A DNA stretch of 59,836 nt from a virus (IMGVR_UViG_3300046791_000436:1-59836); one strand, 5' to 3'. Numbered from the stretch's first letter, positions 1 to 59,836 are shown. The notes: a model not told the origin generated them from the letters alone. Numbers and translations are program-made.

Positions 1-127
1 TCTCCCGAAAGCAGTCCCTAAGAAGGCGCATGTATTGGAGCGTCGATGGGATCTCCCAATGCAGCCAACGACGGTGGTAAGCCCGTGCGTAATGCAGAAC
101 CGGAGAAAAGACATGCTACAGATTCTG
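1..127. repeat. Terminal direct repeat / circular assembly overlap (copy 1)
   Basis: 1-127 is identical to 59710-59836. The length matches a common assembler k-mer, implying a circular or terminally redundant unit of 59709 bp. Confidence 0.95.
52..106 (+). ncRNA. Twister ribozyme (duplicate of 59761-59815 inside the overlap)
   Basis: Same sequence as twister 4; it is the same locus, not an extra copy. Confidence 0.85.
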
Positions 128-748
128 GTCGATCTTGGCGCTTGTGAAGAGGCGCGGATCTGGGCCAAGGACTACGCCGATCTTCAATCGGCGTGGGACA
201 AGTGCGAACGTGGCGATTGGATGCTCTGGCTTCTGCAGAGATCCAAGGACCCGGACCGCAAGAAGATCGTTCGCACGACCTGTGACATTGCCAGGACCGT
301 GTTGCATCTGATTCCTGCCAATGAGGACAGGCCACGTCTGGCGATCGAAGCAGCCGAAGGCTGGTGCGAAGGAAAGGTCTCGATCGAGACTGCCTACGCT
401 GCTGCCCGCGCTGCTGCCGACGCTGCCTATGCTGCCCGCGCTGCTGCCTATGCTGCTGCCGACGCTGCCGACGCTGCCGACGCTGCTGCTGCTGCCGACG
501 CTGCTGCCGACGCTGCTGCCTACGCTGCTGCCGACGCTGCCGACGCTGCTGCCGACGCTGCCGACGCTGCTGCTGCTGCCGACGCTGCTGCCGCTGCTGC
601 CTATGCTGCTGCCGACGCTGCCGACGCTGCCGACGCTGCTGCCGCTGCTGCCTATGCTGCTGCTGCTGCTGCTGCTGCCGCTGCTGCTTCTGGTTTGAAA
701 CAAGCACACATTGTGCGCAAGCACTTCCCCCTAGCACCGAGGTTCTGA
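113..748 (+). CDS. Phage protein with Ala-rich (AAYAAADA) repeat tail, Imm5-like
   Basis: ATG 113 follows GGAGA. Contains ACEEARIWA, RGDWMLWLL and RPRLAIEAAEGW motifs, then a low-complexity Ala/Asp/Tyr tract. Confidence 0.75.
   Translation: MLQILVDLGACEEARIWAKDYADLQSAWDKCERGDWMLWLLQRSKDPDRKKIVRTTCDIARTVLHLIPANEDRPRLAIEAAEGWCEGKVSIETAYAAARAAADAAYAARAAAYAAADAADAADAAAAADAAADAAAYAAADAADAAADAADAAAAADAAAAAAYAAADAADAADAAAAAAYAAAAAAAAAAASGLKQAHIVRKHFPLAPRF
391..688 (+). repeat. Coding low-complexity GCT/GCC/GAC tandem repeat
   Basis: Irregular repeats of GCTGCCGAC and GCTGCCTAT that encode the Ala-rich tract. Confidence 0.9.
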
Positions 749-58280: not shown

Positions 58281-58349
58281 GCCTCAACACAGCAAGCCGG
58301 TCCCAAGCCCGGCAACGGACTCACCTCGAGTTCGGATGTGGAGGGAGGC
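58281..58349 (+). ncRNA. Twister ribozyme 1 (type P1)
   Basis: P1 GCCU/AGGC; CAA; P2 CAC/GUG; AGC; P4 GCCGG-UCCCAAGC-CCGGC; P5 hairpin; GA-GGG pseudoknot with loop CCC. Confidence 0.9.
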
Positions 58350-58355
58350 AAACCC

Positions 58356-58463
58356 ATGATCTACTTGAAGCGCCTGCCCAACGGCAGGTTTGCCAAGGCT
58401 CGCCGCCCCTACAAGGGCGAGCTGATCCTCGGCCTGCTGCTGATCCTGGCCCTGGTGCTCTGA
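58356..58463 (+). CDS. 35-aa membrane peptide (not in the ORF track)
   Basis: MIYLKRLPNGRFAKARRPYKGELILGLLLILALVL. Its GGAGG SD lies inside the ribozyme 3' strand. Confidence 0.55.
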   Translation: MIYLKRLPNGRFAKARRPYKGELILGLLLILALVL

Positions 58464-58734: not shown

Positions 58735-58937
58735 CCGACGAACCAACCGAGACCTACGCCCGCGTCGTCGAGCAGGGACTGGCCTTGCAACAGCAGGCAG
58801 CCAAGATCCTCGAGATCTGTGGCATCCACTACGACAACCTGATCGCCGGCCACCACCGGCTCAGGACCGTCGCTGACCTTCTGGGCGAAGCGCGGGAAAG
58901 CCTGCGCAAAGCCCGTGCTTGGCTCCCAACCAACTGA
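58731..58937 (+). CDS. Small helical protein
   Basis: ATGA coupling. Confidence 0.55.
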   Translation: MTDEPTETYARVVEQGLALQQQAAKILEICGIHYDNLIAGHHRLRTVADLLGEARESLRKARAWLPTN

Positions 58938-58943
58938 GGACCC

Positions 58944-59123
58944 ATGGACTGCCCCCGCTGCGGCCTGCCCATCAGCACGCAACACGCCTGCTGGGAGTGC
59001 AGGCCGGTCTTCGTTCGCCCGCCGCGACTCAACTTCGCTCGCAAGCGCGAGGCTTGGAAGACCGAACTGGTCTTGACGTGCCTCGCCATGGCCTGTCTGA
59101 TCGCACTCGCAATCTGGGGCTGA
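58944..59123 (+). CDS. 59-aa zinc-finger + TM peptide (not in the ORF track)
   Basis: GAGGA SD; MDCPRCG...CWEC...LVLTCLAMACLIALAIWG. Confidence 0.55.
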   Translation: MDCPRCGLPISTQHACWECRPVFVRPPRLNFARKREAWKTELVLTCLAMACLIALAIWG

Positions 59124-59308
59124 TCCAGAAAAACCCGGAGGATGCCATGTAGCAGTCCTACTCAAAAGCGAAAGACTCAAATACTCGCTTTTGGCGGCCT
59201 AGCGAGCCGTCAGCCGTGAACCAGGACCTTCGAAAGATGCAGGAAAAGAAAGCGCCGGCTCGGCGCTAGAACACAAATGCGAGCACTCGCCGGGTAGCTG
59301 AGGCGCCC

Positions 59309-59417
59309 GGCACGTTTATCCCAGCCAGTGGAACCGCCGCAGATCCGAGTAGCCCTCGGAAACAGGACGGGAAAGCTGAAGGTCTCAAGCCCTTGTAAAT
59401 TGGAGAGAGGACGTGCC
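59309..59417 (+). ncRNA. Twister ribozyme 2 (variant, large P3)
   Basis: P1 GGCACGUU/GACGUGCC; P4 AAGG-UCUCAAGC-CCUU; GA-GAG pseudoknot with CUC. L1 reads UAU and P2 is imperfect. Confidence 0.65.
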
Positions 59418-59498
59418 TGCGGTAATCGATCTAACGTGGATCGGTAGCTCATTTCCAACCTAAGAAACTGGTTGCGACACAAGAGCGGTGTCAGCAGG

Positions 59499-59599
59499 TG
59501 TCCTAATGCGGCCCTCGAGGACTCGTGAGATACTCGGGGACGGTGACAAGCCCGTAAAACGTCCGGCCCGCGGGGTGACGAAAACGCAGAGTCAGGACA
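59499..59599 (+). ncRNA. Twister ribozyme 3 (type P1 with P3 and P5)
   Basis: P1 UGUCC/GGACA; UAA; P2 UGC/GCA; GGC; P3; P4 ACGG-UGACAAGC-CCGU; P5; GA-GUCA pseudoknot with UGAC. Confidence 0.92.
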
Positions 59600-59709
59600 A
59601 GCCCTCGGTGAACGGCAAAGTTTCCGTAAGCCGGATCGGGATCTTCGCAAGCAACTGGACCATGCCTACCGGCTACAGAAAGGTTGCCCAAGTCGACCGG
59701 TCTCGAATG

Positions 59710-59836
59710 TCTCCCGAAAGCAGTCCCTAAGAAGGCGCATGTATTGGAGCGTCGATGGGATCTCCCAATGCAGCCAACGACGGTGGTAAGCCCGTGCGTA
59801 ATGCAGAACCGGAGAAAAGACATGCTACAGATTCTG
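59710..59836. repeat. Terminal direct repeat / circular overlap (copy 2)
   Basis: Identical to 1-127. Confidence 0.95.
59761..59815 (+). ncRNA. Twister ribozyme 4 (minimal type P1)
   Basis: P1 UCUCC/GGAGA; CAA; P2 UGC/GCA; AGC; P4 ACGG-UGGUAAGC-CCGU; GA-ACC pseudoknot with GGU. Confidence 0.9.

Follow-up and report, generated by a model that had tools for sequence, protein, structure and literature searches.

Tandem type-P1 twister ribozymes and an orphan spacer fold upstream of a gene in an uncultured soil phage

The window, that is, the whole 59,836-nt stretch of DNA that was analysed, carries on its plus strand an array of type-P1 twister ribozymes which is best explained as a case of a layout known from phages, in which ribozymes cut a multi-gene message, with two cassettes here that hold either no gene or a tiny one; the chance that this explanation is the right one is put at about even. 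Phages carry a very large and partly uncatalogued set of twisters, to which those found here are additions, and the array likewise adds one more case to a layout in print since 2011, rather than representing a new kind of element. Its one unusual element is the first of the two spacers between the ribozymes, an orphan fold that belongs to no family. The four twisters (tw0 to tw3), the spacers and the surrounding features are listed below.

58281-58349, plus strand: tw0, type-P1 twister with a P5 hairpin; RF03160, 29.0 bits; twister-like fold, z -2.38
58944-59123, plus strand: 59-aa ORF, the last ORF upstream of the gene-free stretch
59124-59312, plus strand: gene-free leader with several hairpins; stability at shuffle level, z -0.37; no Rfam match
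59313-59413, plus strand: tw1, type-P1 twister with a 45-nt insert in P3; RF03160, 36.3 bits; z -2.72
59414-59499, plus strand: spacer 1, 86 nt; closing helix and three hairpins
59500-59598, plus strand: tw2, type-P1 twister with P3 and P5; RF03160, 31.3 bits; fold shows P1-P5
59599-59761, plus strand: spacer 2, 163 nt; structure at chance level
59608-59730, plus strand: GTG frame of 40 aa, inside an 80-codon open frame
59710-59836 (= 1-127), strand not applicable: terminal direct repeat, 127 bp, 100% identity
59762-59814 (= 53-105), plus strand: tw3, minimal type-P1 twister without P3 or P5; RF03160, 27.3 bits; z -1.81
113-748, plus strand: downstream gene of 211 aa, from the ORF list; coding statistics positive

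The window is the complete genome of a tailed phage, an uncultured soil phage, assigned to this class on the basis of a head maturation protease, a tape measure and a tail assembly protein (PHROGs); a family-A DNA polymerase, an SNF2-type helicase and a C5 methylase (Pfam) are also encoded. The record is classed as having direct terminal repeats and its source contig continues beyond position 59836; an overlap of 127 bases is also a typical leftover of a common assembler on circular contigs. Since positions 59710-59836 are identical to positions 1-127, the record closes on itself, and the array and the gene that starts at position 113 are contiguous. An earlier note on this DNA, which had described tandem twisters with structured spacers, had missed the repeat and, as a consequence, the position of the third twister of the tandem, tw3, which ends 7 nt before the ATG at 113. 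A search for sequencing runs that contain the region listed one DNA run, possibly the source, and no RNA run; among the contigs of the DNA run, the array is covered by the identical source contig only, and neither variants nor joints were seen.

The array sits in a gene-free stretch of 698 nt that extends from the stop of the 59-aa ORF (59123) to the ATG at 113 (= 59822). Very small genes form a block upstream of the array (57.9-59.1 kb), and the neighbouring genes are tiny (35-70 aa) with a clear coding signal. Minus-strand frames across the array display flat codon-position GC and no coding signal. A search of the leader (59124-59312) for a sigma-70-like promoter gave no candidate. A terminator-like hairpin, GC-rich, of 7 bp and followed by a T-run, was noted on the minus strand at 59267-59251 and faces the array; all genes neighbouring this hairpin (59251-59267) are plus-strand. 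The ORF at 997-1443 is followed by another region free of genes, about 470 nt long (1444-1910), which contains several hairpins and gave no Rfam match at E<=0.5.

The identity of the twisters was assessed against the Rfam family twister-P1 (RF03160, gathering cut-off 67.2 bits) and against the published anatomy of the class. No match was obtained with Rfam at the gathering score, and a search of the whole window in E-value mode at E<=0.5 yielded four matches to RF03160 and none to any other family, with scores of 27.3-36.3 bits, below the 67.2 bits that the family asks of its members, and whole-window E-values of 0.036 (tw0), 3e-4 (tw1), 8e-3 (tw2) and 0.11 (tw3). The scores are low because the Rfam model cannot score pseudoknots and penalises long inserts, and tw3 is without P3. 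Twisters of type P1 are described as having nested stems P1, P2 and P4, the two ends lying in P1, optional stems P3 and P5, an AAGCC motif in loop L4 and a three-pair pseudoknot T1 that joins L4 to the internal loop (PMC5408937). The Rfam alignments span model positions 1-68 in all four copies and include the nested stems P1, P2 and P4, and the minimum-energy fold of each isolated element reproduces the nested P1-P2-(P3)-P4-(P5) layout. The GGU-NNN-AAGCCC loop, the GC after P2 and the A at position +1 are likewise present in 4/4 twisters. In every copy the NNN bases of the loop are exactly complementary to the three bases after the 'GA' behind P2, giving three T1 pairs in each (CCC/GGG in tw0, CUC/GAG in tw1, GAC/GUC in tw2 and GGU/ACC in tw3), and these depart from the consensus on both sides in three of the four copies, tw0 having the consensus CCC/GGG. 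That T1 is complementary in all four despite the differing sequences argues for selection on the active fold.

In tw0, tw2 and tw3, neither P2 nor P4 is disrupted. The least regular copy is tw1, in which the base immediately 5' of P2 is a U in place of the consensus A and P2 itself contains one C-A mismatch, and which may cut poorly; its P1 can be extended to 59309-59316/59410-59417. Set against the published type-P1 twister (RF03160; PMC5408937), the array elements are alike in P1, P2 and P4, the AAGCCC loop, the GC after P2, the three-pair T1 and the A after the scissile bond, and unlike in their scores below the gathering value, in the non-consensus T1 and in the U for A of tw1. Judged by their sequence features, they are real type-P1 twisters, and from the same anatomy we infer that they cut, the expected sites being C58285|A58286 in tw0, U59317|A59318 in tw1, U59504|A59505 in tw2 and C59766|A59767 in tw3. 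The tandem twisters of the earlier note are borne out by the RF03160 matches, the core and T1 as three copies of type P1, and the cut sites that it had proposed, together with its fragments of 187 and 262 nt, agree with the cuts implied by the Rfam alignments. The element tw0 lies outside the feature that it had described, between two tiny ORFs.

The position of the twisters relative to start codons was examined next to their anatomy. A GGAG(G) motif stands exactly 7 nt before a start codon in tw0 (ATG 58356), tw1 (GTG 59413) and tw3 (ATG 113). The end of tw2 is AGGA, with GTG 59608 after a gap of 10 nt. The twister consensus is itself GGAGGG-like at the GGAG(G) place, so that part of this match to a Shine-Dalgarno sequence comes free. 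In tw0 the motif is a GGAGG in the 3' strand of the element, and the ATG at 58356 opens a 35-aa ORF with a hydrophobic tail. In tw3 the 3' strand of P1 is the GGAG itself, at 59811-59814 (= 102-105), and the next ATG (113 = 59822) follows 7 nt on, making this GGAG the likely ribosome-binding site of gene 113-748. It was also observed that the likely ribosome-binding site is part of T1/P1 in tw0, tw1 and tw3 (58344-58358, 59402-59415 and 59811-59824, respectively).

In the explanation that we favour, a single plus-strand transcript would run from the small-gene block at 57.9-59.1 kb into gene 113-748 and would be cut by the four type-P1 twisters after positions 58285, 59317, 59504 and 59766. 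The last cut would leave the message of gene 113-748 with a 5'-OH end about 55 nt before its start codon and with the GGAG in the 3' strand of the P1 of tw3. Pieces of 187 and 262 nt would be released as linear RNAs and, if all three twisters of the tandem cut, these would bear 5'-OH and 2',3'-cyclic-phosphate ends; in each, a complete twister would be followed by a spacer and then by the 5 nt that form the 5' strand of P1 in the next twister. In the cut 187-nt piece, the 3' tail would pair with the freed P1 strand of tw1 and so lengthen the closing helix of spacer 1. The fold of spacer 1 might then make for a longer-lived piece, act as an insulator against misfolding between similar adjacent twisters or be a small RNA of its own, and spacer 2 might be filler or a tiny or decayed gene. 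The existence of one covering transcript, like the function of the pieces, is what we infer from this arrangement.

The message-cutting explanation is supported by the presence of four twisters on the gene strand within 1.5 kb and by their order of ribozyme, ribosome site and gene. A textbook case of the gene-punctuating layout was met in an IMG/VR contig (L209), where four near-identical twister-like elements lie on the minus strand at about 500-2000, one before each of four genes of 86-123 aa, the fourth of which ends with the stretch that was read; their core is the same as that of tw2 and tw3, and the order of ribozyme, ribosome site and gene is the same as well. Twisters, too, are reportedly often close to one another, an observation attributed to Roth et al. 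in 2014. Self-cleaving ribozymes of bacteria are described as often lying close together (PMC6765202). In prophages, hammerhead ribozymes are reported to flank single genes or short gene blocks and have been proposed to process long phage transcripts, and three such arrangements cut in vitro; in the same account, circular or spliced products were sought and not detected (PMC3088659). The array resembles these prophage and phage clusters in having several gene-strand ribozymes within about 1.5 kb of a phage region of early or small genes, with a start codon shortly after each of them; transcript cutting has been proposed as their role (PMC3088659). It differs from them in that two of its three intervals, of 86 and 163 nt, are without a convincing gene, one of these being a stable fold, whereas the cases described in that account flank annotated genes (PMC3088659). 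Against message cutting, a set of three ribozymes within 500 nt, separated by no convincing gene, exceeds what is needed, and the twister scores lie far below the cut-off (27-36 vs 67.2 bits), with the core departures of tw1 to be added on the side of sequence. The function of ribozymes near phage genes is described as still unknown (PMC6765202).

Spacer 1 consists of a closing helix (59415-59420/59494-59499) and three arms, of 9 bp with a 3-nt loop, 5 bp with a 9-nt loop and 5 bp with a 7-nt loop. The four helices claimed in the earlier note are all present and form the minimum-energy fold, which, at -30.7 kcal/mol, is stable beyond chance (z -3.17, with 0/200 shuffles as good; z -2.88 in a rerun with 300 shuffles). 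The signal is strand-specific, the opposite strand giving z -1.90, and the limits of the spacer were fixed by the flanking twisters and not tuned to the fold. In the genome, 3/196 windows of the same size reach z -3.17, which places spacer 1 in the top 2% or so without making it unique. Its stability hints at a role of its own. For the possible GCUC/GAGC pseudoknot that the earlier note had added to the helices, the 4 bp exist in the sequence and compete with three pairs of the minimum-energy fold. When the 187-nt piece was folded as a whole, the spacer-1 fold persisted and the 3' tail GUCCU paired with AGGAC of tw1.

Spacer 1 is not a tRNA: ARAGORN found 0 genes, no Rfam tRNA match was obtained at E<=10, and arm 1, a 9-bp hairpin with a 3-nt loop, counts against a tRNA cloverleaf; the 7-nt loop of arm 3 is without the T-loop sequence. 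Neither spacer matched any Rfam family at E<=10, and no match to hammerhead, pistol, hatchet, twister-sister, HDV or hairpin ribozymes was obtained in 58900-59836 at E<=10 or in the whole window at E<=0.5. A GTG frame of 16 codons (59413-59463) occurs in spacer 1 with GGAG upstream at 7-nt spacing; its codon-position GC (0.47/0.53/0.47) carries no signal, and its start lies inside the stable helix. The hairpin-2 loop of spacer 1, GAAACU (59464-59469), is complementary over 6 bases to AGUUUC (59619-59624) in spacer 2, which forms the loop and the first stem base of that spacer's first hairpin; a kissing contact is possible, and on a rough count so is chance.

The two spacers are unrelated to each other, the repeats being the twister cores only, and spacer 2 shows no comparable fold. 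The earlier note had read it as a highly structured H-type pseudoknot; the helices do occur in the sequence, but the stability of spacer 2 is that of its shuffles (z -0.07, 90/200 shuffles as good; z -0.19 for a 142-nt core), and the pattern of a 6-bp closing helix around two interleaved helices, one of 6 bp or more and one of 5 bp or more, was found in 297/300 shuffles. Both spacers had also been described there as free of reading frames, which is wrong for spacer 2 in view of the GTG frame at 59608-59730 (40 aa). A 74-aa call of this frame (P0001) in a public protein library is this contig's own product, and a search of the 40-aa frame against 1.84 billion representatives returned that call together with a repetitive 988-aa protein matched in six short stretches. 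The 40-codon frame has codon-position GC of 0.46/0.54/0.66 and a GC3-GC2 difference of 0.12, in between the values of true frames (0.28 +/- 0.16) and of wrong frames (-0.11/-0.17). It is weaker than every neighbouring small gene, with GC3 of 0.66 vs 0.77-0.92, and its log-likelihood per codon is 0.09/0.18 vs 0.13-0.71 for those genes. Spacer 2 may even be a tiny gene.

Relatives of the array were sought by sequence, by flanking genes and by structure. A blastn search of 59124-59836 against 50,697 phage records gave no match, and an exact 34-mer of spacer 1 occurred 0 times in IMG/VR. Loci were collected around homologues of the flanking genes, 36 for the upstream 70-aa gene and, for the downstream gene, 2 viral, 6 metagenome and 1 genome; no twister was seen in the 38 and 7 loci of the two resulting sets, and blastn similarity to the spacers at E<=1 in the flanking-gene loci was restricted to chance matches of 12-22 nt. 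A loose core pattern in 3/38 loci, and in 2 distinct places of the second set (three rows, one contig appearing twice), was taken as chance, as by eye none of these places combined the AAGCCC core with a paired P4. Five whole related records were searched with RF03160 (0/5 at E<=1), and use of the DNA polymerase as bait in IMG/VR retrieved no close relative of the phage.

Pattern searches of IMG/VR were carried out as well. The core pattern of tw2 and tw3 is very common, occurring in at least 115 stretches, and in 80 of these neither a blastn match to spacer 1 or 2 at E<=0.5 nor a spacer-like fold was found; weak blastn matches of the leader in the same 80 loci (33 nt at 82%, E 0.008; 23 nt, E 0.33) were taken as chance. 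A pattern of two cores 135-165 nt apart gave no comparable array in the 80 of 101 stretches inspected. Ten of these stretches had two cores at a distance of 159-186 nt; most proved to be coding repeats, and a single true twister core (L096) was among them. When the two loops of spacer 1 were searched with free stems, the best among the 80 of at least 101 stretches taken had 7/10 stem pairs, and a structure model of spacer 1 (R1), run against the window and 99 loci (813,136 bases), recovered itself only. The array is absent from everything related that was examined and is thus not an old, conserved feature; as no relative carries it, conservation, the usual sign of function, is missing.

The stable fold of spacer 1 raises the alternative that the 187-nt piece, tw1 with spacer 1, is a phage small RNA serving as decoy, regulator or anti-defence agent and stabilised by its paired 3' end or by closure into a circle by RtcB of the host, a reading that we regard as distinctly unlikely. 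It draws on the strand-specificity of a fold beyond chance (z -3.17 vs -1.90) whose limits are set by the twisters, and on the pairing of the 3' tail in the cut piece, which would hold the 3' end. The 2',3'-cyclic-phosphate and 5'-OH ends left by self-cleaving ribozymes are described as fitting RtcB (PMC8782182), and RtcB is reported to circularise ribozyme-cut retrozyme RNAs in vitro, at up to >80% (PMC7229834). On the other side, spacer 1 has no relative by sequence, loops or structure model, hence no covariation, and the phage offers it no target-like complementarity, the best being 16 nt with one mismatch (E 0.22); for both spacers, complementarity to the rest of the phage stayed at chance level. 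RtcB was also sought in the phage and none was found. All three twisters being of type P1, the 5' part of either piece remains a complete twister. In the Tornado cassette for circular RNA, an insert with pairing ends is flanked by twisters and ligated by RtcB, the 5' twister being permuted, which leaves the product almost free of ribozyme sequence. The array is like it in flanking an end-pairing cargo with twisters, and unlike it in that all its twisters are of type P1 and are kept whole on the piece. The 5' end of the 3' fragment of a type-P1 twister is described as enclosed by the fold and less accessible to ligation (PMC8782182), and in the account of the prophage hammerhead clusters no circle was detected (PMC3088659). 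Retrozymes and the other circular RNAs with tandem ribozymes that occur in plants, animals and some RNA viruses share with the array two nearby ribozymes that excise 186-400 nt with ends that RtcB can join; theirs are repeats of one sequence with circles established by experiment, whereas the units in the phage DNA differ and are known here from sequence (PMC7229834; PMC13725137). The units of the array are unlike each other, and retrozyme or viroid-like monomers are repeats, which again weighs against a circle. Geometries for self-ligation were considered and set aside as too weak: the 3' tail of the 262-nt piece matches 3/4 bases of the tw2 P1 5' strand, and the tail of the 187-nt piece matches the tw1 P1 strand only in a register that breaks T1. 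Circularisation would be possible on the modelled pairing, and that the 187-nt piece is a true ribozyme-made phage small RNA, with a paired 3' end or as an RtcB-closed circle, is very unlikely. Theta (HDV-like) ribozymes beside phage tRNAs (PMC10879173) offer a further likeness, a phage ribozyme next to a structured non-coding RNA that it would trim; they are of another ribozyme class, and their cargo is a recognisable tRNA, which spacer 1 is not.

It is unlikely, too, that the spacers are tiny gene cassettes, spacer 2 coding for 40 aa and spacer 1 perhaps for 16 aa in an operon with one twister per small gene. Each would have a Shine-Dalgarno-like motif followed by a start codon (GGAG-7 nt-GTG in tw1, AGGA-10 nt-GTG in tw2), the genes upstream are themselves of 35-70 aa, the GC3-GC2 value of 0.12 in the 40-codon frame falls between coding and wrong-frame values with a slightly positive log-likelihood, and spacer 2 has no RNA fold signal while its frame has already been called by a gene caller (P0001). 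That self call is, however, the sole real protein match among 1.84 billion representatives, the coding signal is below that of every neighbouring small gene (GC3 0.66 vs 0.77-0.92), and the 16-codon frame has no codon-position GC signal and starts in a stable helix. The spacers would instead be functionless leftovers of lost genes if the array were decaying and cutting had been lost in some of the three twisters or in all, in keeping with the scores below the cut-off, the core departure of tw1, the absence of the array from every relative examined and the featureless spacer 2; the perfect complementarity of T1 in 4/4 copies of differing sequence and the intact P2 and P4 of tw0, tw2 and tw3 speak against this, and we consider it very unlikely indeed. 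A last suggestion of the earlier note, that one or both spacers represent a new ribozyme class, is scarcely credible. The genomic setting is of the kind used for such discoveries (PMC6765202; PMC8782182) and spacer 1 is a stable multi-helix fold, but no family, conserved core or relatives were found, most such candidates are described as failing in assays (PMC8782182), spacer 2 has no fold signal, and nothing else points there. Measured against these alternatives, the cutting of a multi-gene message is retained as the preferred explanation.

The role of self-cleaving ribozymes in bacteria and phages is described as still open (PMC6765202). At about 500 nt the array is small and suits a direct test of message trimming, of the release of the ribosome site from P1 and of a stable small RNA. 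Were the 187-nt piece a stable or circular phage RNA released by ribozymes, the finding would be considerably more notable than the known layout. As far as the literature was searched, no regulatory RNA that twisters naturally make in a DNA phage, whether circular or protected at its ends, is known to be in print.

Further observations concern the gene that follows the array. The N-terminal part of the product of gene 113-748 is weakly Imm5-like (Pfam PF21805, E 0.0029, below cut-off) and is followed by about 100 residues of Ala/Asp/Tyr-rich repeats (AAADAAY-like), which are tandem repeats at the DNA level (positions 400-700). In the N-terminal part, identity to the nearest relatives is 38-53%, and one of these lies in an Opitutaceae MAG contig. 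Upstream of the gene, a GGAG (59747-59750) is complementary to CUCC (59762-59765), the 5' strand of the P1 of tw3, and the minimum-energy fold of the 262-nt piece includes the hairpin that the two form. This hairpin (59747-59765) would be a competitor of that P1 and, once cutting has taken place, could draw the 5' strand away from the ribosome site.
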